The notes beneath the pieces were generated by a model. It was not told the origin of the DNA, did no database searches, and saw only the letters and a list, made by a program, of their open reading frames with translations. The position numbers and the translations under genes were made by a program. Positions 17,201-31,468 of a stretch of DNA of 64,000 bases are shown here, in pieces. Within the stretch, counting starts at the first letter, position 1. The number at the start of each line of letters is the position of its first letter. Origin of the DNA: Candidatus Nealsonbacteria bacterium (lineage in GTDB: Bacteria; Patescibacteriota; Minisyncoccia; Minisyncoccales; GWA2-38-27); assembly GCA_030617105.1 (NCBI GenBank), contig JAUWWC010000001.1, positions 4,759 to 68,758 of the forward strand, read 5' to 3'.

Positions 17201-17206
17201 TAAAAA

Positions 17207-17240
17207 ATCCCTCTGAAAATCAGGGGGATTTTTGCTTTTT
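17207..17240 (+). terminator. rho-independent terminator after rpsI
   Basis: TCCCTCTG...CAGGGGGA stem followed by TTTTTGCTTTTTT. Confidence 0.6.
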
Positions 17241-18660: not shown

Positions 18661-19623
18661 ATGGAAAAAAGAATAATGGCAAGAAATATTGCATGGTTTT
18701 GTGTTTTGCTTGCTGTATTAGGTAGTTTGATTTGGTTCAATAATCTTAGTATAGCTTTGCAATGGAATCCAAAAGCAGGTCATGGATTTGAATATCATGG
18801 TCCAATCTCTTATTTTGATCGTTTTGCAGTAGATTTTTCTACAGTTAGCACTCTTGTACCTTTTTTTGGGATGTGCCTTATTGCAAGAGGATTTTTCAGT
18901 ATTGCTAAAGCCAAAGAAAAGACTAATTGTTCAAAGGTCTTTCCATTTTTTGTGAATTACGAACGTATTATGGTTGCCTTAGGATTGATGGGAACGGTCT
19001 GGGGGCTTATTATGATTGGGTATTACCCATCTGAACAAGTCCAAATGTCACAGTTGATAAATTGTTTGAGAACCGCTCTTTATTCAACTTTAATTGCCTT
19101 GATTTGGGTGTTTCTTATTGTTATACCACTTAGATATAGTATGCAGCGAGCTTATAGAAGTATTTCTGGTTACCAGGTCTTAAAACCTAATGAGACTATT
19201 ATTTCCCTTTTAGGAGACCTCAGTTCAGCAGCTTCAGGCCTTACTGAGACCATAAATGAAACCAGTAGTACTTTTAGCCAGCTTAAGAATGAAGTCTCAG
19301 GAGCTAAAAAGGAATTTCAAGAAGTTGATAAGTTGATAGCAGAGATCAAAGGTAAGGCTGAAGGTGTATTTGATAAAGCTCAGGAGTCCTTTAACCAGAT
19401 AAGTTCTGGATCTCGGGCTTGGCAGCGAGCTGCAGAAAAACAGCAAAAAGCTGCTGAGGCGCAAGAAGCATTTTTCCAGCAATTAACCAATGAGTTGGAC
19501 AAAGTAATAAAAGAAAGGGATGAATTAAAAGGAAAATTAGACCAAACAAAACAAGAATTAGTTGAAGTAAAAAGCAAATTCCGTAGATTAAGGGATTTTG
19601 TTAGAGGAATAGTTGGAAAATAG
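18661..19623 (+). CDS. MotA/TolQ/ExbB-family proton-channel protein with ~165-aa C-terminal coiled-coil tail
   Basis: 4 hydrophobic segments; ALGLMGTVWGLIMIG matches TolQ/ExbB G-L-x-G-T-V-W-G signature; following TM resembles TolQ TM3; heptad-rich K/E tail. Confidence 0.6.
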   Translation: MEKRIMARNIAWFCVLLAVLGSLIWFNNLSIALQWNPKAGHGFEYHGPISYFDRFAVDFSTVSTLVPFFGMCLIARGFFSIAKAKEKTNCSKVFPFFVNYERIMVALGLMGTVWGLIMIGYYPSEQVQMSQLINCLRTALYSTLIALIWVFLIVIPLRYSMQRAYRSISGYQVLKPNETIISLLGDLSSAASGLTETINETSSTFSQLKNEVSGAKKEFQEVDKLIAEIKGKAEGVFDKAQESFNQISSGSRAWQRAAEKQQKAAEAQEAFFQQLTNELDKVIKERDELKGKLDQTKQELVEVKSKFRRLRDFVRGIVGK

Positions 19624-19636
19624 AAAGGAGCAAAAA

Positions 19637-20503
19637 ATGGAAGATTTATTAGAACGGGTAGGAACACTTTTTGGTGCTGAAAAAGAGGAAGAAGTGTCTA
19701 CGGCTGAAACTTTTGAGTTATTGTGTCAGATTGCTTTGGCTCTACTAATAATCTTTGTTATGGCTAATACTATTTTTAGAGGTAGAGCTCAGGCACAGAT
19801 TGATGAAAGTAGAGGTAGGCAAGGTGTTCTTGAAGATGAAAATAGAAGATTTAGACAAGCAGATCCAAATATTGCAAGCTATGAGAGAGCAATGATGGAT
19901 GTACAAAAACAGAAGCTTCTTTTGGCATTAGAAAAGATTGAAAATACCCTTCGTGATGATTTCGGGATTGATCATTTTGCACCAAAAGATCGCAGTACTC
20001 ATGAAAGTAAGTATTTAATGAACGATCTTCTTTCAGGGGAAAAAGTAATTAATGAGCGGTTTAAACAAGCTTGTATTATTGCTAAACAAGTTTTCTTAGA
20101 CAGAAAAAAATTGCGACAGAACTGGTGTGATAGGATACCTTTGGTTGAGCCAGGATTAGTATTTGATAGTACTCCAGAAAAACAATCAATTATTACAAAC
20201 CCTGAAGTTATAAGTCCGGAAAATGAAATATTGGTATTTCAGGAGATTGCTAATAGAATAGAAGGGATATATGCTGATTGTTGCGATATGCAGCGCATGG
20301 CCCTTTCTTATCTGCAGGAGTATTATTATGAACATACAGAATTACTAAAAGGAACTGAATTTGATAAGAACTTAAATAATGATGTATCTTCAGCATCAGA
20401 CAAGGAAAAACGAAGACTTATGTTGCAACGTAGTCAAGAATTGTATATGTATATAAAATCACTTTTTGAAAAACAGAATGTACCACTGCTTAGCGGAGTT
20501 TAA
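19637..20503 (+). CDS. single-pass membrane protein (N-in, TM aa about 25-45, ~240-aa C-terminal domain), candidate TolR/ExbD/MotB-like partner of the upstream channel
   Basis: Start at ATG 19637 with AAAGGAG SD, abutting stop of upstream gene; TM lacks canonical Asp but is preceded by Glu; topology only. Confidence 0.45.
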   Translation: MEDLLERVGTLFGAEKEEEVSTAETFELLCQIALALLIIFVMANTIFRGRAQAQIDESRGRQGVLEDENRRFRQADPNIASYERAMMDVQKQKLLLALEKIENTLRDDFGIDHFAPKDRSTHESKYLMNDLLSGEKVINERFKQACIIAKQVFLDRKKLRQNWCDRIPLVEPGLVFDSTPEKQSIITNPEVISPENEILVFQEIANRIEGIYADCCDMQRMALSYLQEYYYEHTELLKGTEFDKNLNNDVSSASDKEKRRLMLQRSQELYMYIKSLFEKQNVPLLSGV

Positions 20504-20536: not shown

Positions 20537-22885
20537 ATGAGATCCGCAAGAAAAAAACCTGTTATTACAATAGCTTTGTTTGTAGTTATCAGCGCCTTGC
20601 TCCCTGGAAGATTTTGCCTAGGGAGCAAGGGCGAATTATCAGCAAAAAAAGCTAATGCAAGATTGTATGCTAAGATGCATATTAATAAACTTTGCGAGCA
20701 AGCAAGAAAACAAGAAGTTGATGTTAATGATCTCTGTGAGAAAATGCTGCAGAATCCAGCTAAATATCAAAACAGAAGACAGGCCTGGGATAACTTAAAG
20801 CAGGAACAAACTCAGATGTTTACTGATTGGTATCAAAAGGAAGTGAAACTTGTTTTACAGGCAATTGACCGGAACTACTTTACTAAAGAAGAGCGAGATG
20901 CTTTTCTAAAACCTCTAGACGAAGTAGTTAAGGACTATCTTGATAAGAATTTTGGCAAAAGCCATACAGATGGAACAACAGTATTTGGCAAAGCAAGAAA
21001 AAAAGCTTATGAAAGCCAACTCAATAAGCTGACAAAAGATGTTTATCCCACAGAAAGCGAAGTTGATACAGCTGTGGCTAAAAGACAGCTCAATAACTTG
21101 CGGATTAAAATATTGAATCAGCTTATTAAAAAACAAAAAGAACCTGTTTTTTCAGAAAATGTAAGTACGCTTAGCAGCGATTTCGTTAATCCCATACTTG
21201 ACGATGCTAAAAAGCAATTAGAAAAACAAGGTTCAATTGTGACCGGTTCTTCTGGCGCTAGTTATGTTGTGCCGGAAGATATCAGGAATTTCATCAGCAG
21301 GGAGATTACTACTTATCAGAACAAGCTTAAGCAGGAAAAGCAGGGAAAAACAATAGCCAATAAGGTCTATAAGATGTTTCCTTCAGTTAAGAAGAAAGTT
21401 GATGATGAGGCAGGCAAAATCGCTATCAAAAGATTTCGCAATGCTATATCTGAAATGAATTTGTCAGTTGACAAGAAGGTTTTAAAAAAGCTGATAAGCG
21501 GGAGCTTATCAGTTCATGCTGACAAAGATAAAAGCTGGAGCACTTGCTTGAAACGTTTTCGACAAGATATTGTTAACAAAGCCATTGATAATCATGCAGT
21601 CAAGGCTCCAAAAGACAAACAATCTGATTTTCGCAACTTTCTGTCATCACTTATTTCAAACAGTGATCAATCTTGCAAAGATGCTATGAATAAACTGGTT
21701 GATAGAAGCTTGAAGCAGGAGTTTGATCGTATACGAAAAGAGATTGCTCAGCAGCAATTCAGAGATTTCTTTGGACCGCTTGAACAAGGTTCTTGGCCTT
21801 CTTCAGAAAAAGCAGATGAGCTGATTGACAAATGGTACAATAAATCAGTGAACATATCTGAATCTGAAGCTTTGAAAATGCCTGATGTTTCATCAAGGTC
21901 CTTTAATTCTAAAGACCTGCTTAAAGAGACCATTGAAATGGTTCGCGAAGCAGAAGAAGCAGGAATAAAAACAGGACTTGATGCTCTGAGGAGCCAGATG
22001 AGCACGGTTGAGAGACTTGAGTTTCAAGTCAAGAGCCAAATTAGAAATATGAGAGATCTCACTATTGAGAAGGTTATAGAGATTTACACACAAAAAGTAA
22101 ATTCATCTTGGTCTTCCAAGGATTATCCCCATCTTTTTACCCGAACTCAAAAGGAAATTAAAAGGCGAGCTAAGGATATTTTAGATTTAGAGATTGCTCG
22201 TCAGCGTCAGATTGCTAATGACAAAGCTAAAGCTGATAAAGCTCGAGCCGATGCTAAAGCCAGAGCTCAGCTTGAAGATAAAGGCAGGTCTGACATACTT
22301 GGCTTGGAAGATTCTGACAAGCCAGGAAAACCAGGTGGAGGAGGAGATCCTAATAAGTCAGGAAAACCAGGTGGTGGCACGCCTGATACTTTTGGCGGTC
22401 CTCCGGGGGGAAAAGGACCTGCAAAAGAACAAGAGGAACCGGGGGATCAAATGCCAGATGTTATTCTTGATTTTGGCTACGAAAGTGGAAAAGTTTATGC
22501 TGACATAATGTTTCCCAAAGAATCAAAAGACAAGCTTAGACTTTTTATGGATCTCAGTGTCAACCTTAATTCGTCTAACATGGTTATTGCTCGAAAGCTT
22601 TTTGCTGATTGGCTTAAAGACGCTGTCAAGAAAAGCAAAAAAGACCAGCAAGACATAAATTTCTATGTTTTTGCCCGAGTTTTTCACGGAAGTTCTGTGT
22701 TATACAGCATGGTTTATTATTTCAGAGAGTGCTTGATAAAAGCTTTAGAAGATACTGGTGATAAAAGAATAAAAATTCACTGGTATGACAGGCTTTTTTA
22801 TGGTTCTTCTGATATTGAGAAATACAGGGGTAAGCCTATTTTGCCTCCTAAGTTTGATAAAAAACTTATGCCGAGATTGGTATAA
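20537..22885 (+). CDS. large membrane-anchored or secreted protein with TolA/TonB-like architecture: N-terminal signal/anchor, ~600-aa K/E/A-rich alpha-helical region, Gly/Pro-rich spacer, ~150-aa C-terminal globular domain
   Basis: N-terminal hydrophobic segment; ANDKAKADKARADAKARAQ helical repeats; KPGKPGGGGDPNKSGKPGGGTPDTFGGPPGGKGP spacer. Confidence 0.5.
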   Translation: MRSARKKPVITIALFVVISALLPGRFCLGSKGELSAKKANARLYAKMHINKLCEQARKQEVDVNDLCEKMLQNPAKYQNRRQAWDNLKQEQTQMFTDWYQKEVKLVLQAIDRNYFTKEERDAFLKPLDEVVKDYLDKNFGKSHTDGTTVFGKARKKAYESQLNKLTKDVYPTESEVDTAVAKRQLNNLRIKILNQLIKKQKEPVFSENVSTLSSDFVNPILDDAKKQLEKQGSIVTGSSGASYVVPEDIRNFISREITTYQNKLKQEKQGKTIANKVYKMFPSVKKKVDDEAGKIAIKRFRNAISEMNLSVDKKVLKKLISGSLSVHADKDKSWSTCLKRFRQDIVNKAIDNHAVKAPKDKQSDFRNFLSSLISNSDQSCKDAMNKLVDRSLKQEFDRIRKEIAQQQFRDFFGPLEQGSWPSSEKADELIDKWYNKSVNISESEALKMPDVSSRSFNSKDLLKETIEMVREAEEAGIKTGLDALRSQMSTVERLEFQVKSQIRNMRDLTIEKVIEIYTQKVNSSWSSKDYPHLFTRTQKEIKRRAKDILDLEIARQRQIANDKAKADKARADAKARAQLEDKGRSDILGLEDSDKPGKPGGGGDPNKSGKPGGGTPDTFGGPPGGKGPAKEQEEPGDQMPDVILDFGYESGKVYADIMFPKESKDKLRLFMDLSVNLNSSNMVIARKLFADWLKDAVKKSKKDQQDINFYVFARVFHGSSVLYSMVYYFRECLIKALEDTGDKRIKIHWYDRLFYGSSDIEKYRGKPILPPKFDKKLMPRLV

Positions 22886-23017: not shown

Positions 23018-24655
23018 ATGAATAAAAGAATTTTCTTGATAATTGTTATACTTTTTCAGATAGGAAAAGTTAGTGTAGCTAATTATCCGCCAAGAGTTAA
23101 AATTCAGAATCCAACAAGTGGTTCAAAATTTAAACTTGACGAAGAAATTGTTTTTAGAGGAATTGCAGTTGATTTAGAAGATGGAGAATTACCAGAAAAA
23201 AATCTTACTTGGACATCTGATTTAGATATTTATATTGGTCAAGGTAATTCATTGACCTATAAGGGTCTTTCAGTTGGTCCTCATATTGTTATGTTAACAG
23301 CATTTGATTCAGAGGGTTCTGTAGGCAGAGATTCAGTTTTTATTACAATACAAGACCCTAAGATCACTAAACCTATTGTTAAGAAACCCAAAAAGGAACC
23401 TAAAACTGGACCTGAAGGACCTAAACTTGAAGAGCTTGAACCAGGGGCGCCATCTATTGAATTTCTTTTTGTGCCTTCTTTTCGCAGTTTCGAAGATCTT
23501 ACAGGCAGAGTATTGAGTGCTGACCCTAATAATTTTGCTGTTGCTGTTTATATTATGAAAGATGGTCTTTGGTGGAGTAAGCGGGTAGGCAAGATTAATA
23601 GAGAGGGCAGATGGATTTGTGATATTACGACAGCTGAACGTGATGAAGTAGCGCTTAAAATCCTTGTCTATCTTGTTCCAAGCGATTTTAAACCCCCGTT
23701 AGCTTCTGGCAATTTTCAGCTTTCTCATGAATTAGAGAAAAATAGTGTAGCAAAAATAGAAGTACTTCGGAAAATAAGAATGCCCAAGGTAACGTTACAG
23801 TCAAAAAGGGAGCCAGAAATCAAGAAGATCCGCAAAAAGCCAGAACCTAAAGGTCCAATAGAGGCATTGGGAGAGCTTTTGATTCGGTTGCTGCCTAAAG
23901 AAAAGCAAACAACAGAGACTCTGAAAAGATATCTCCCTTTAGCAGTTGGCAACAAATGGACCTATCAGAGAACCGTTTACAAGAGCGATGAAGTTTTTCA
24001 TTACAGAAAGCAAATTATTGAGAAACCTGGCTGGAATAGTCCCCCTCGAGGAGCTGTCTATTTTACCCTCGGCCGGACAATAGAAAAGATGCCCCAGAGT
24101 TCTCTAGAGACATATAGCATTTCTAATTCTACTCTAACAGACAAATTTGCATCCTGGGACGTAGAAATTGAAGGGACTATTCCTAGAGATGGAAGATACT
24201 CCTCACTTTATATTAAAGAGGAGCCAAATGTTAAATGGCTTTATGTTGATGGAGGTGTTTGGGAACTAATGCAAGGTGAATATTTAGGCGCTGAGACCAT
24301 AAGTCAGACTTGGCTAGCGGTCTTAGAGCCAGGGATAATAATTTCTGACTCAGCAAAAGAAGGGGAGATACCTTTCTGGGCAATAGGAGCAGTTTTAATC
24401 CCAGAAAAAATCACTACCCCGGCTGGAAAATTCTCAAGCTGCTTGAAGAATTGCACTATGATTAGAGGTCAAAATTTGAAAGAAGTATTATTAAAAGATA
24501 TGCCTCCTGAGTATTCAGAACAGGAAGATGGTTTTGGAAACTTCACGACCATATCTTTTTATGCGGAAGATGTTGGCTTGATCAAAGAGGTTCAGTATAA
24601 CTCCAAAGGGGAACTTGTATATGAATTAGCGTTAATCGAATATAAGGTAAATTGA
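23018..24655 (+). CDS. secreted multi-domain protein (signal peptide; Ig-like N-domain; domain shared with the GH17-like protein; C-terminal domain shared with the downstream paralog)
   Basis: RGRVLSADPNNFAVAVYIM...WICDITT aligns with 25865 product; PLAVGNKWTY and YELAL motifs align with 24778 product. Confidence 0.55.
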   Translation: MNKRIFLIIVILFQIGKVSVANYPPRVKIQNPTSGSKFKLDEEIVFRGIAVDLEDGELPEKNLTWTSDLDIYIGQGNSLTYKGLSVGPHIVMLTAFDSEGSVGRDSVFITIQDPKITKPIVKKPKKEPKTGPEGPKLEELEPGAPSIEFLFVPSFRSFEDLTGRVLSADPNNFAVAVYIMKDGLWWSKRVGKINREGRWICDITTAERDEVALKILVYLVPSDFKPPLASGNFQLSHELEKNSVAKIEVLRKIRMPKVTLQSKREPEIKKIRKKPEPKGPIEALGELLIRLLPKEKQTTETLKRYLPLAVGNKWTYQRTVYKSDEVFHYRKQIIEKPGWNSPPRGAVYFTLGRTIEKMPQSSLETYSISNSTLTDKFASWDVEIEGTIPRDGRYSSLYIKEEPNVKWLYVDGGVWELMQGEYLGAETISQTWLAVLEPGIIISDSAKEGEIPFWAIGAVLIPEKITTPAGKFSSCLKNCTMIRGQNLKEVLLKDMPPEYSEQEDGFGNFTTISFYAEDVGLIKEVQYNSKGELVYELALIEYKVN

Positions 24656-24777: not shown

Positions 24778-25731
24778 ATGAAGACTCTACTAAAAAATGT
24801 AAAGTTAGTTATTTTGGTTGTTTTTGTGGCTCTGGCTTCTTTATTCTTTTTTGAAAGAAAGCCTAGTGAGGCTTCTAACCAGCCAACTGAGATCAGGATG
24901 AAAGAGCGAAAGACAGTAGAGAAAGCTACCACTACTGAAAATTTTATCCCCGGTACCTATGATCCAAGATTACTTATGCCCCTAGCTCTTGGAAATAGCT
25001 GGACCTACGGTTGGAAAAGTGCTGCTGTATCGACCTTAAAAGAAGTAGAATCCAAAGATAAGGCAATTTTTAGGGGTCTAAGCTGGTACTCATTTGGTGG
25101 AAAGAGTGTGCTGGCCAGATGCTATGGCTATAAAGCAAAAGCCCATAAGGAAACTTACACCCTTATCCGACAGGATGGCGATCACTATTTCTTTACTATT
25201 TCTATTGATCCCAAGGTACCTTCAGAACAGATACGCGATGGCAGATTTGAAGATTCTGTTGAGAATTGCTGGACCTGGTGGGACCTTAGGCAAGGCTCTT
25301 ACGGTTCAATGGGAATGACTGAGTCCATAAAACGGAATTGGGGTATCCATAGAGATTATCTTCTTGGCAAACAAGCTGAATTGCCAGATGATTTTCCAGC
25401 AGACCACCGCAACGCTATTCACATTGAGTTTACAGAAGGTGAGTGGGGCGATAGTTGGTTGGAATTTGCTTATTCTAAAAATCCCTGTAGATATGTATAC
25501 AAAACCATGGGTAATGAAGTTAAGGTAGCTGCTGGAACATTCAAAAACTGTATTGAAGCGATTGAGAAGGTTCATAAGGATGCCGAAGAGAAAAGCCCCC
25601 TGGTCTGGGAGACCCATATATTCTGGGCTCCTGAGGTAGGCAAGGTCTGGGAATACCAGAGGCTTGCTGATGGTACCATAACCTATGAGTTGGAGCTCCT
25701 AAAATTTGTTCCAGCCCAAAAGAAAAAATAG
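24778..25731 (+). CDS. secreted protein, paralog of the C-terminal domain of the 23018 product
   Basis: Signal/TM at N-terminus; PLALGNSWTY...YELEL shared motifs. Confidence 0.55.
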   Translation: MKTLLKNVKLVILVVFVALASLFFFERKPSEASNQPTEIRMKERKTVEKATTTENFIPGTYDPRLLMPLALGNSWTYGWKSAAVSTLKEVESKDKAIFRGLSWYSFGGKSVLARCYGYKAKAHKETYTLIRQDGDHYFFTISIDPKVPSEQIRDGRFEDSVENCWTWWDLRQGSYGSMGMTESIKRNWGIHRDYLLGKQAELPDDFPADHRNAIHIEFTEGEWGDSWLEFAYSKNPCRYVYKTMGNEVKVAAGTFKNCIEAIEKVHKDAEEKSPLVWETHIFWAPEVGKVWEYQRLADGTITYELELLKFVPAQKKK

Positions 25732-25740
25732 GCAAAATAG

Positions 25741-25776
25741 GTGTCAGATTTATTTTCTGGCACCTCTTTTTTTCGC
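25741..25776 (+). terminator. rho-independent terminator (GGTGTCAG...CTGGCACC stem with one G-U, then T9)
   Basis: Read directly. Confidence 0.6.
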
Positions 25777-27846: not shown

Positions 27847-29118
27847 TCAAGGAGTTAATTCTTCTGAAGTGTAAAGGTTCCCTTCAGATAAAATATATAG
27901 CTTTTTATTAGCCCAGAAGATTTTAGGTTCTTTAAACTCAGTCAGGTCAACTATATTTATTCTATCTCGGTCGTCGATTTCGACGACTTTTATTTTATCT
28001 CCAGCATTAAAGATTAAATAATGGTTTGTATACCAGAAAACATTATCAATTCTCTCTGAGAAACGTGTTATAAATAGTTTTTCTCCAGGTTCCTTTTGTG
28101 GCTGGTCATATTTCTTTTCTAAGAATAAAACCCAGATTTCATAATTATTGAAATAAGCCATTTTTCTTGAATCAGGAGAGAATTTGAGATCTTTAATTGG
28201 TTCAAAGAGTTTTTGGAAAGATTTTTTACTTTCATCAAAAATATATAAAATATCATTTTCTTCCAAGAGAATATGAGAGTTGGAAGCTCTGATTTTATAT
28301 TTTGTTTCTTGTTTAACCTCAAAAGGAATCAGATTTAATCTTTCTTGGTTTTTGAAAACAAAGCCAGCTATGTCAAGATAGTAAATATCTTTGTTAGAAA
28401 TAAAGAGGGTAATTACATTTTTCAGTTCTGGGGCAGGGTCCAAGAAGGCTTGTTCAGGCCATTCTAAAAAACCAATAGAGGTCAAAACAGGAGGACTTTT
28501 ATCTATATCTAAAACATAATAATTTATTGTTTCTTTAAGGCCAACTTTCAGCAAGATTTTTTTTGAATCTGGAGAAAATCTTATATCAAACAACTCTACT
28601 TCTTCTTTTGATATGTCTTCTTCATCAATGAGATGGCTTTTGACATTTTTATCTATTTCAAAAAGCTTTAAAGACCAGCCAGGGCTTTTTAAGATTATCT
28701 TTTTCTTGTCTGGAGAAAAGAAAAAGTCCCTTACCCCTTTTGTTATTATTGTAAAGCCTGGGTTTTCTGGGATTAAGACGATATTTTTTGCTTCAGTAGC
28801 CTCTCTTTTCCTTATTTCTAATGTTTTCTCCCACTTATGAAATCCTTGTTTTTTAACCTCCACCTTATATTCTTTAGCCAAGAGATTTTCAATAAGTACT
28901 GAGCCAAAGAAGAAGTCAGTTTTCTCTTTTAGTTCTCCATTAAGATAAATTTCAGCGCTCCGTGGCCAGACCTTGAAATAGAAAATTCCTGGCTGGGTGA
29001 TTTTTTTGGTTTCCCAGTCAAAACGCCAGCCCAGGCAATACAAAACAGCTAAAGGAGCAATAATTAGAAATAAAATTAACAAAGATAAAAATAGAATAGT
29101 CCGCGTTTTATAAGTCAT
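27847..29118 (-). CDS. membrane-anchored protein with PEGA-like domain and TolB-like beta-propeller repeats
   Basis: N-terminal TM; VWPRSAEIYLNGE...KVEVKKQGFHKWE PEGA-like; repeated FSPDSKK/FSPDSRK propeller-like motifs. Confidence 0.5.
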   Translation of the reverse strand: MTYKTRTILFLSLLILFLIIAPLAVLYCLGWRFDWETKKITQPGIFYFKVWPRSAEIYLNGELKEKTDFFFGSVLIENLLAKEYKVEVKKQGFHKWEKTLEIRKREATEAKNIVLIPENPGFTIITKGVRDFFFSPDKKKIILKSPGWSLKLFEIDKNVKSHLIDEEDISKEEVELFDIRFSPDSKKILLKVGLKETINYYVLDIDKSPPVLTSIGFLEWPEQAFLDPAPELKNVITLFISNKDIYYLDIAGFVFKNQERLNLIPFEVKQETKYKIRASNSHILLEENDILYIFDESKKSFQKLFEPIKDLKFSPDSRKMAYFNNYEIWVLFLEKKYDQPQKEPGEKLFITRFSERIDNVFWYTNHYLIFNAGDKIKVVEIDDRDRINIVDLTEFKEPKIFWANKKLYILSEGNLYTSEELTP

Positions 29119-29187: not shown

Positions 29188-30459
29188 ATGGAAGAGAAGT
29201 TTATCATTCAAGGAGGCAATCCTTTAAAAGGAGAAGTTGAAATAAGAGGAGCAAAAAATGCTGCTTTCCCTATATTAGCAGCTTCTGTTTTAACCAAAGA
29301 AACTTGTGTTATTGATAACATTCCTTTGATTGAGGATGTTTTCAAAATGATAAAAATTCTTGAAAAGATGGGAGCTGAAATTTCTTGGACAGGGAAGAGA
29401 AAAATTGAAATAAATTCTTCAAAAGTTAGACCTTCAAAAATTCCTTTTAATCTTGTAGCATGTTTTAGAGGGTCTGTTTTAGTTTTAGGAGGATTATTGG
29501 GTCGTTTCAATAGAGTAAAGATTCCTTCTCCTGGCGGGTGCCTTATTGGGGCAAGGCCTATTGATACTCATTTAGATGCTTTTGAGCAAGCAGGGGTTAG
29601 AGTTTCTCCAGAGAGCGGATTTTATTGCTTTGAAAAGAGAAAAGAGGACAAAGCAATTGAGGTTATTCTTAAAGAAATAAGCGTTACAGCAACAGAGAAT
29701 ATGCTTTTGTTTGCTGCTGCTAATTCTAAGAAAACAGTTATTAAGATAGCTGATCAGGATTATCAGGTTCAAGATTTGATTAAAGTTCTTGAGAAAATGG
29801 GTGCTGAAATTAAACACTCTGGAGTTAGGGAATTAGAAATTATTGGAAAGAAAAGATTAAAAGGATTTAAACACTTTATAATGTATGATCCTATTGAAGC
29901 AGGCACTTTTATTATTGCAGCTTTGGCAACAAGAGGACAAGTAATAATTAAAAATGCTGAATTATCCTTTCTTAGTTTATTTTTAAAAAGATTAAAGGAC
30001 TTCGGCGCTAATTTTAAAATATTAGATTCAAAAACTATTAGAGTTTTACCTTCAAAAAAGCTTAAAATTGATAAAATTCAAAGTTTACCCTACCCTGGTA
30101 TTCATTCTGATTTGCAGCCAGAATTAGGCGTATTGGCAACTCAGACGAAAGGTGCCACTTTAATACATGATCCTTTGTTTGAAGGTAGATTAAGATATCT
30201 TAATGAGTTAAATAAGATGGGAGCTGATATTATTTTCTGCGATCCTTATAGAGCTATTGTTTATGGTCCAAGCCAGCTTCAGGCAATTGAGATGCCTAGT
30301 TCAGACATTAGGGCTGGAGCAGCAATGATTATTGCAGGACTTATCGCAAAAGGAACAACTGTTATTCATAATGTTTATCAGATTGATAGAGGGTATGAAA
30401 AGATAGAAGAGCGTCTTCAGAAATTAGGAGCAGATATAAAAAGAAGAATCCAAAAGTAA
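29188..30459 (+). CDS. murA: UDP-N-acetylglucosamine 1-carboxyvinyltransferase
   Basis: IRGAKNAAFPILAASVL EPT-fold N-terminus, 423 aa. Confidence 0.85.
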   Translation: MEEKFIIQGGNPLKGEVEIRGAKNAAFPILAASVLTKETCVIDNIPLIEDVFKMIKILEKMGAEISWTGKRKIEINSSKVRPSKIPFNLVACFRGSVLVLGGLLGRFNRVKIPSPGGCLIGARPIDTHLDAFEQAGVRVSPESGFYCFEKRKEDKAIEVILKEISVTATENMLLFAAANSKKTVIKIADQDYQVQDLIKVLEKMGAEIKHSGVRELEIIGKKRLKGFKHFIMYDPIEAGTFIIAALATRGQVIIKNAELSFLSLFLKRLKDFGANFKILDSKTIRVLPSKKLKIDKIQSLPYPGIHSDLQPELGVLATQTKGATLIHDPLFEGRLRYLNELNKMGADIIFCDPYRAIVYGPSQLQAIEMPSSDIRAGAAMIIAGLIAKGTTVIHNVYQIDRGYEKIEERLQKLGADIKRRIQK

Positions 30460-30460
30460 T

Positions 30461-31468
30461 ATGTTTATTAAGAAAATTGGCATTGATTTAGGAACCTGCA
30501 ATTCAGTGGTTTTTACTCCTAAAAAAGGAGTGGTTTTGACTGAACCTTCAGTAGTAGCAGTTACTCTTGCTGAAAACAAAATTCTGGCTGTAGGTCAAGA
30601 AGCAAAAGAAATGACTGGTCGAACACCTGATACGATTAGGATTTATAGACCTTTAAAAGATGGAGTAATTGCTGATTATAGAGTTACTGAAGCAATGCTG
30701 AGATATTTTGTTAAGAGAGCAGCAAGAAGTTTTAGGTTTTTTAAACCAGAGCTTTTAGTTGGAGTACCAGCTGGTATCACTTCTACTGAGAAAAGAGCAG
30801 TGATTGAAGCTGGGATGGCAGCTGGAGCTAAGGGAGTTTACGTTGCTAAAGAGCCAATTTTAGCTGCAATTGGGGCTGGCATTCCTATTAATTCTTGTTC
30901 AGGCCATATGATTGTTGATATTGGCGGAGGGACTTCAGAAGTAGCTGTGATTTCTCTTGGCGGGATAGTAACTTGCAGTTCTCTTAGAGTAGCTGGAGAT
31001 AAAATGGACCAGGCAATTTCCAATTACATCAAGAAGAAGTATAATCTGGCTATTGGTGAACAGACAGCTGAAGAGATAAAGATAAAAATTGGCACAGCTT
31101 TGCCAGAGAAGGAAGAGAAAGAAATGGAAATCAGGGGCAGGAATTTAATTTCTGGCTTGCCTCAGAACATTAAGATTAGTTCTAACGAGGTTTGTGAGGC
31201 AATTTCTGACCGGCTTGATGAAATTGTTCAGATAGTTAAGGCAGTTTTAAGAGAGACGCCTCCTGAGCTTTCAGCTGATATTATGGATAAAGGAATGATT
31301 CTTTCAGGCGGGGGAGCATTGGTTAGAAATATTGATGGACTTATTGCTCGGGCTACTGGAGTTCCTTGTTTTTTAGCTGAAGATCCATTGCTTTGCGTTG
31401 CAAAAGGACCAGGAGTAGTGCTGGAGAGTCTTGAAGCATATAAGAAGAGTATAATGACTAAAAAGTGA
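30461..31468 (+). CDS. mreB: rod shape-determining protein MreB
   Basis: IGIDLGTCNSVVF, DIGGGTSEVAVISLGG actin-fold motifs. Confidence 0.8.
   Translation: MFIKKIGIDLGTCNSVVFTPKKGVVLTEPSVVAVTLAENKILAVGQEAKEMTGRTPDTIRIYRPLKDGVIADYRVTEAMLRYFVKRAARSFRFFKPELLVGVPAGITSTEKRAVIEAGMAAGAKGVYVAKEPILAAIGAGIPINSCSGHMIVDIGGGTSEVAVISLGGIVTCSSLRVAGDKMDQAISNYIKKKYNLAIGEQTAEEIKIKIGTALPEKEEKEMEIRGRNLISGLPQNIKISSNEVCEAISDRLDEIVQIVKAVLRETPPELSADIMDKGMILSGGGALVRNIDGLIARATGVPCFLAEDPLLCVAKGPGVVLESLEAYKKSIMTKK

Follow-up and report, generated by a model that had tools for sequence, protein, structure and literature searches.

A probable secreted third partner of a MotA/ExbB-like membrane pair, encoded in a conserved gene triad of Candidatus Nealsonbacteria and other bacteria

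What is the role of a long, unannotated protein whose gene lies directly behind a pair of genes resembling a membrane channel? The question is raised by a stretch of 64,000 nucleotides from Candidatus Nealsonbacteria bacterium (assembly GCA_030617105.1, contig JAUWWC010000001.1, positions 4,759 to 68,758 of the forward strand), hereafter the window, in which the third gene of such a row, here called gene C, encodes 782 aa. An earlier note, made from the letters of this DNA, had read C as a TolA/TonB-like extended protein completing a TolQRA or ExbBD-TonB triad. The gene itself is well founded, since the open reading frame (ORF) is preceded within a few bases by a GGAAGG-type ribosome-binding site and belongs to a conserved family, and an identical protein is already present in public collections (P0001, from a 77-kb contig). 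The window has a GC content of 35% and a dense gene layout like that of the Candidate Phyla Radiation (CPR). The channel pair seen in the earlier note is also there: directly 5' of C lie a MotA/ExbB-like gene, A, and a gene for a one-pass membrane protein, B. We conclude that C is very probably the secreted third member of a conserved triad, A-B-C, and not a homologue of TolA or TonB.

Whether the three genes form a unit can be judged from their order elsewhere. In the loci of C homologues, a gene A of about 300-450 aa is followed by a gene B of about 230-300 aa and then by C. This order is found in the close relatives L001 and L004, which share the ribosomal-protein context of the window, in L002/L003, where the C homologue is 33% identical and the context quite different, and in the remote members L007, L008, L009, L091 and L092. 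As an independent test, a metagenome collection was baited with A alone, and the ORFs of the resulting 80 loci were scored with hidden Markov models (HMMs) of A, B and C. Thirty-nine of these loci were informative, having at least 3.2 kb downstream of A, and 34 of the 39 showed the order A-B-C (32 scored directly, together with L058 and L082, which have over-extended ORFs). The baited loci form 25 groups at 60% identity of A and lie on contigs of 34-76% GC. The genes next to the triad are unrelated housekeeping genes (NAD synthase, Obg, enolase, RF-1, Lgt) and, outside the triad, no gene family recurs among the neighbours of the examined loci. Because the neighbours are unrelated, A-B-C can be regarded as a conserved unit, and the gene order that the earlier note proposed to look for in relatives is indeed kept in distant homologues.

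We then asked how far C resembles TolA or TonB. The protein was split into five parts on the basis of a 10-sequence alignment, an AlphaFold2 model (mean predicted local distance difference test score, pLDDT, 69) and a composition script (Table 1). The earlier note had left the N-terminus as an anchor or a signal, and it is the signal that held up. The segment begins with the basic MRSARKK, continues with a hydrophobic core of 13-15 residues and Pro-Gly, and ends in C-L-G|S, which to the eye looks like a signal peptidase I site. It has neither a His nor an SHLS motif, as an anchor would, and is poorly conserved, L21 being its only invariant residue among the 10 homologues. Nearly all relatives of C carry a short classical signal peptide whose Ala-x-Ala-type site immediately precedes the helix that is conserved first in the family. 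A lipoprotein signal was also considered and was rejected, the conserved Cys27 being preceded by Phe, Leu or Pro, which makes no lipobox.

The part that follows is not the very long K/E/A-rich helical region, similar to TolA domain II, that had been claimed. Residues 30-560 have an ordinary complexity (entropy 4.05 bits; A+K+E+D 34%, with Ala outside the six commonest residues), and the model gives them many helices of 25-45 residues, with a pLDDT of 80-95 over residues 40-320. Their column identity among the 10 homologues, 70%, equals that of the C-terminal domain (CTD), with dozens of invariant positions outside any repeat. This part therefore appears to be a conserved domain of globular type, as judged from composition and conservation, and not a TolA-II-like repeat. 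The Ala/Lys/Asp-rich stretch amounts to about 30 aa (residues 561-590), contains AK[AD] three times and shows the lowest conservation in the protein, with 49% column identity and 25% gaps. The idea that the helical domain is basic and binds polyanions was considered and rejected, the net charge ranging from -19 to +23 across the family. The two remaining elements of the earlier description were recovered: a spacer that is 50% Gly plus Pro (30% Gly, 20% Pro) and that AlphaFold2 predicts as disordered, with a pLDDT of about 31-45, and a compact alpha/beta CTD, here of about 140 aa.

The CTD has the order b1-b2-b3-a1-b4-a2-b5, with a pLDDT of 70-87, and ends in a conserved basic, Pro-rich tail, GKPxLPPxFxKxxMPRLW. 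Conserved residues stand at positions D8, D12, R81, Y90, R97, W116 and D118 of the A8 alignment; in the model two Asp lie on strand 1, an Arg on strand 4, a Tyr and an Arg near helix 2, and a W-x-D motif follows strand 5. These residues could form a binding or catalytic site. Foldseek found no PDB match to the C model below an E-value of 0.01. The best local matches fall on the CTD and concern uS11 (PDB) and RuvC and RNase H-like proteins (viral library), all of them weak (E 0.03-0.2); the order of strands and helices fits such uS11/RNase H-like folds. An enzyme-family CTD with no synteny to the channel genes, the outcome named in the earlier note as adverse to it, is not what was found: the synteny exists and the fold matches are weak. 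The proposed kinship of the CTD with TolA-III or the TonB CTD found no backing in any comparison. By Pfam, neither C nor any of 46 relatives has a TonB_C (PF03544) or TolA domain, an 18-sequence CTD profile matched no PDB sequence of TonB or TolA, the hhalign probability was 0.7% for the TonB CTD and 0.3% for TolA-III, and there was no TonB or TolA chain in the Foldseek top 50 for C.

These results bear directly on the possibility that C is a transducer of the TolA/TonB type, which would keep its N-terminal helix uncleaved at the side of an ExbB-like ring and pull on a distal target. The layout does recall the ExbB-ExbD-TonB and TolQ-TolR-TolA systems: of three genes, two encode a channel and its one-pass partner, and the third a long protein in which a Gly/Pro-rich spacer precedes a small C-terminal domain. 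Novel TonB-like transducers that end in an unrelated domain (vWA) have also been reported (PMC12204202). However, the hydrophobic core of C is short, is followed by Pro-Gly and C-L-G|S, varies within the family and carries no His or SHLS, while relatives have AxA sites; the helical region appears to be a conserved domain of globular type, neither Pro-rich nor an Ala/Lys/Glu repeat; and no TonB_C or TolA-III could be detected. We therefore consider a transducer of this type very improbable. What stands of the triad proposed in the earlier note is the conserved set of three genes, and what falls is the homology to TolA/TonB and their mode of coupling. The vWA "force transducers" linked to TolQ-like proteins (Williams-Jones et al. 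2025, PMC12204202) are similar in that MotA/ExbB-family genes are tightly linked to non-TonB partners; they differ in being membrane-tethered, with an SHLS or Asp-bearing transpore helix and a vWA end, all of which C lacks.

C instead belongs to a family of its own. It has no match beyond noise in Pfam, NCBIfam or PADLOC (in the latter a single weak one, to REase_II, E 3e-4) and none among PDB sequences, and across 46 diverse relatives no Pfam match is common to any two. A word-indexed search yielded 10 homologues of 33-100% identity, whereas an HMM search run exhaustively over 1.84 billion cluster representatives yielded 272 clusters at E<=1e-3, of which 202 reach E<=1e-10 and 84 reach E<=1e-30; these numbers indicate a real protein family rather than a chance resemblance. 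Most relatives are 600-850 aa long and match mainly through the helical domain; when the profile was broadened, the CTD aligned as well in 77 of 146 full-length members. A second word-indexed search, with the 46-sequence alignment, gave almost only the known close homologues, the Gly linker having probably swamped it, and in a scan of a species-genome collection the sole relative was a Candidatus Nealsonbacteria metagenome-assembled genome, which is consistent with the GC content and gene layout of the window. In one family member of 1377 aa (P0041), two helical domains of about 530 aa stand in tandem ahead of the Gly linker, and the C-terminal region, which contains Cys, is of another kind.

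The nature of the module depends further on its membrane pair. Protein A has four predicted transmembrane (TM) helices and ends in a coiled coil of about 150 aa, a tail that is probably cytoplasmic. It matches Pfam MotA_ExbB with 25.1 bits (cut-off 22.9; E 1.6e-5) and PADLOC ZorA2 with an E-value of 2.3e-6; compared with PDB sequences, the A family profile finds ZorA (2.7e-5) ahead of ExbB (0.03) and TolQ (0.09). Among 85 distinct sequences, the motif L107-G-L-x-G-T112, T138, S142, T143 and Asp58 are invariant or nearly so (T112 and S142 in 85/85, T143 in 84/85, Asp58 in 84/84). T112 aligns with ZorA Thr147, which is among the residues contacting ZorB Asp26 (PMC11946911). A also keeps the residues that, by manual alignment, correspond to ExbB Thr148 and Thr181. 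Asp58 is located on the second TM helix, at its outer end. The segment from residue 27 to 70, comprising the outer loop and this helix, contains the invariant residues N28, G47, D58, S60, T64, P67 and G70, for which we know of no counterpart in ExbB, TolQ or MotA. A further differs from ExbB and TolQ by an extra N-terminal TM helix and by its coiled-coil tail, and the host of the window has no outer membrane.

Protein B departs more from the known systems. The mechanical ORF starts at a TTG (19613) and overlaps A by 11 nt, whereas the database protein P0162 starts at ATG 19637, 13 nt past the stop codon of A, which is probably the true start. B has no match in Pfam, NCBIfam, PADLOC or PDB sequences. 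Its TM helix aligns with residues 23-42 of ExbD, with LCQIALALLIIFVMA in B opposite FIDVMLVLLIIFMVA in ExbD (hhalign P 0.0019). In this alignment the position of ExbD Asp25 is occupied by Gln in 52, Asn in 5 and His in 1 of 58 distinct B sequences, and by an acid in none of the 58; all five Asn come from CPR relatives, and the B protein of the window has Gln40. A conserved acidic pair (DD or DE) is present 7-8 residues upstream. In Zorya the equivalent residue, ZorB Asp26, is "universally conserved and mechanistically essential", and D26N abolishes function (PMC11946911). Consequently, with Gln or Asn at the essential Asp position, ion coupling has been either re-wired or lost. Outside the membrane segment, AlphaFold2 models B as a TM helix continuing into an all-helical domain of about 240 aa (pLDDT 81.8). 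This model shows no OmpA-like or ExbD-like fold and has no significant Foldseek match; B therefore lacks both the Asp25/Asp23 and the periplasmic fold of ExbD/TolR. No peptidoglycan-binding domain was found in B by Pfam, PDB sequence profile or Foldseek.

Since the closest solved relative of A is ZorA, the module might be a Zorya-like anti-phage or envelope-breach sensor, in which C would sense and the A tail would signal to a cytoplasmic effector. The GT motif of A aligns with Thr147 and its cytoplasmic coiled coil resembles a short ZorA tail, although it measures about 150 aa against about 500 aa. Candidate effectors are at hand: a Cas4-like PD-(D/E)XK nuclease gene lies directly 5' of A in 5/5 CPR loci (the window, L001, L021, L022 and L023), and a cluster of Pup-ligase-like, bpMoxR AAA+, vWA and TPR-FGE-sulfatase genes lies directly 5' of the triad in three other lineages. 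On the other hand, PADLOC detected no ZorC, ZorD or ZorE and nothing meaningful for B, C or the downstream genes; B replaces ZorB Asp26 by Gln or Asn and lacks a peptidoglycan-binding domain; the product of the third gene is secreted; and the surroundings consist of genes for ribosomal proteins, the cell wall and metabolism rather than of defence islands. Moreover, the Cas4-like gene is kept only where the ribosomal-protein context is shared, and because the five loci have this whole context in common, the linkage may only mirror their relatedness. A defence or breach-sensing role thus appears to us a distant prospect.

Could A and B have become a static or signalling scaffold that no longer conducts ions or rotates, tethering the secreted C and wall-modifying proteins or relaying the state of the wall through the A tail? 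The death of ZorB Asp-to-Asn mutants and the missing peptidoglycan-binding domain in B argue in this direction. However, the pore-lining Thr/Ser in the last two TM helices of A, Asp58 of A and the acidic pair of B are strictly kept, which is hard to explain for a dead channel, and a working motor without an axle acid is known. In GldLM, a 5:2 motor, the ring carries the acid, GldL Glu49, which pairs with Arg9 of the axle GldM (bioRxiv 10.1101/2022.01.28.478170). We therefore regard a pure scaffold as unlikely. The triad resembles GldL-GldM and PorL-PorM in having an axle without Asp and an acid on the ring, here Asp58 of A, with Gln40 in B, and by analogy this arrangement could be of the GldLM kind. 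B also shares with the N-terminal part of GldM/PorM the layout of a TM helix leading into a helical domain; GldM chains from four GldLM entries head its Foldseek list, with the PorM N-terminal domain at rank 34. These matches are nevertheless non-significant (E 0.3-3), there is no sequence similarity, A belongs to MotA_ExbB and not to the GldL family, no type IX secretion system or gliding genes are nearby, and GldM itself spans the periplasm where here there is a separate secreted C.

A hint about the target of C comes from the genes behind it. In 13/13 loci (7 groups) that match a narrow CTD profile, a homologous immunoglobulin (Ig)-like/glycoside hydrolase family 17 (GH17) gene lies directly 3' of C. 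Counting all 16 loci with the CTD type of the window, such a gene adjoins C in 14, a count uncorrected for phylogeny; L092 is included, and L091 and L093 are without it, L091 having an ankyrin/FGE-sulfatase gene directly 3' of C. A strict link between the CTD and GH17 was dropped, as the 13-locus co-occurrence is weakened by L091, L093 and the broader profile. We take the link between GH17 and C to be functional, because the loci concerned have three unrelated upstream contexts; it is clade-specific. In the window, C is followed by a secreted 545-aa protein, a secreted 317-aa paralogue of its C-terminal part and a GH17 protein. The Ig-like N-terminal domain of the 545-aa protein is common to the GH17 proteins of other loci, and the set has the appearance of the single Ig-GH17 gene of L002 and L016 after a split or a duplication. 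The middle domain of the 545-aa protein recurs at the N-terminus of the window's GH17 protein.

Taken together, we propose that C serves outside the cytoplasm as the partner of a non-canonical membrane complex of 5:2 type that acts on the wall zone, a model to which we give about even chances. A would form the outer ring of the complex, its coiled-coil tail reaching into the cytoplasm and connecting the complex to it, and the ExbD-like helix of B would sit inside this ring, with its all-helical domain projecting outside the membrane. C, exported by means of its putative signal peptide, cannot couple to the channel via a membrane helix; it may dock through its conserved 530-aa helical domain onto the outer part of A/B, where the helical domain of B, and perhaps also the conserved outer loop of A, would hold it. 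The flexible Gly-rich tether would then let the CTD reach a distal target in the wall zone, which in the clade of the window is probably the Ig-like/GH17 beta-1,3-glucanase proteins or their beta-1,3-glucan. If ion coupling has been re-wired, the candidates are Asp58 of A and the acidic pair of B, two turns upstream of the Gln, by analogy with GldL-Glu49/GldM-Arg9. As the CPR host has no outer membrane, the triad occurs on contigs over a wide GC range and a C gene is also found on a contig bearing lpxC (L010), an outer-membrane target is not required, in agreement with the suggestion in the earlier note that C would need a different one. From CPR without an outer membrane to high-GC bacteria, A-B-C would therefore act on the wall zone and not on an outer membrane.

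Several observations weigh against this model. The Pfam score of A is barely over the threshold, and four other A proteins fall below it; the B-ExbD alignment is short and weak, with an hhalign probability of 14%. In 58 B sequences, Lys and Arg number 157 after the TM helix and 76 before it, which points weakly to an N-out orientation of B. This charge bias was not relied on, because the N-terminal tail of E. coli ExbD is likewise acidic and has no Lys or Arg. The cleavage of the C signal peptide was judged by eye. The order A-B-C has its exceptions: L031 and L040 have A-B without C, L049, L066 and L068 have A alone, and C stands without an adjacent A or B in L010 and L093. In L066 and L068, A is followed by a peptidase S9/esterase gene. 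Finally, the GH17 link, being clade-specific, may reflect shared ancestry, and about half of the wider C family has a CTD without GH17.

The triad may be of interest beyond this clade. To our knowledge, all studied systems of the MotA/ExbB family (flagellar stators, Ton, Tol, Agl, Zorya) depend on a single Asp in the axle, and they deliver their output to a membrane-anchored transducer or through wall anchoring. A-B-C breaks both rules and is yet strictly conserved in at least 25 lineages. The scaffold is known; the axle chemistry and the secreted partner are new. In a bolder reading, to which we give somewhat less than even chances, A-B-C would represent a new class of envelope machine that arose from the 5:2 scaffold, in which the ring kept its ion-path residues and gained an Asp, the axle Asp was lost, and the output passes to a separate secreted helical protein of 600-800 aa in place of a membrane-anchored transducer or a peptidoglycan anchor. 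The triad thus offers a natural test of how ion coupling is re-wired or abandoned in a 5:2 scaffold, and a starting point for assigning a function to over 270 clusters of wholly unannotated secreted proteins. Full-text literature searches retrieved no description of it, nor is it mentioned in the accessible parts of recent surveys that cover non-flagellar relatives of MotA/ExbB and novel force transducers (PMC12505986, PMC12204202).

Table 1. Features of the triad and its surroundings, in window coordinates unless a locus is named.
Feature	Position	Strand	Basis
Gene A, 320 aa, MotA/ExbB/TolQ/ZorA family	18661..19623	+	Pfam MotA_ExbB, PADLOC ZorA2
Gene B, 288 aa, one-pass membrane protein	19637..20503	+	ORF; database protein P0162
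Gene C, 782 aa, (very probably) secreted third subunit	20537..22885	+	ATG 20537 to stop 22885
C residues 1-29, putative Sec-type signal peptide	20537..20623	+	read from sequence
C residues 30-560, all-alpha family-defining domain	20624..22216	+	AlphaFold2 helices, conservation
C residues 561-590, short variable charged Ala/Lys/Asp helix	22217..22306	+	alignment, composition
C residues 591-640, Gly/Pro-rich flexible linker	22307..22456	+	composition, AlphaFold2
C residues 641-782, alpha/beta CTD	22457..22882	+	AlphaFold2
Cas4-like PD-(D/E)XK nuclease, 227 aa	17787..18470	+	Pfam PDDEXK_1/Cas4; PADLOC Cas4 1e-12
545-aa secreted protein, Ig-like N-terminus, DUF3108-like C-terminus	23018..24655	+	
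317-aa secreted paralogue of the 545-aa protein's C-terminal part	24778..25731	+	
GH17 glycoside hydrolase, 633 aa	25865..27766	+	Pfam Glyco_hydro_17 2.3e-13
Terminator-like hairpin after rpsI	17203..17233	+	consensus scan only
Terminator-like hairpin after the 317-aa gene	25739..25765	+	consensus scan only
PEGA-domain protein with beta-propeller-like region	27847-29118	-	
murA	29188-30459	+	
mreB-like	30461-31468	+	
bpMoxR-vWA-FGE-sulfatase cluster	L002 1360-7874; L016 2-4919; L017 3-5361		
Ankyrin-FGE-sulfatase gene	L091 7442-8710		

The remaining features of the locus concern its limits and its neighbours. A consensus scan, the sole basis for the hairpins, placed a terminator-like hairpin after rpsI and another after the 317-aa gene, with no intergenic one on the + strand between 17233 and 25739. 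Hairpins at both ends and none between fit a single transcription unit running from the nuclease gene to the 317-aa gene, of which the first hairpin may mark the upstream limit. The nuclease, located between rpsI and gene A, is of the Cas4-like Fe-S type, with one N-terminal and three C-terminal cysteines, and no cas genes occur within the 14-30 kb stretch of the window. An FGE-sulfatase domain is recurrent near the triad, in the bpMoxR clusters and in the ankyrin gene of L091. Cell-wall genes and GH17 near the triad in a Nealsonbacteria-like CPR genome point to a role in the envelope or in glycan handling, in a group whose surface biology is barely known. Beyond the GH17 gene, the PEGA, murA and mreB-like genes also flank the cluster in L001 and L004, and these kept flanks place the module among cell-wall and shape genes in the clade of the window.

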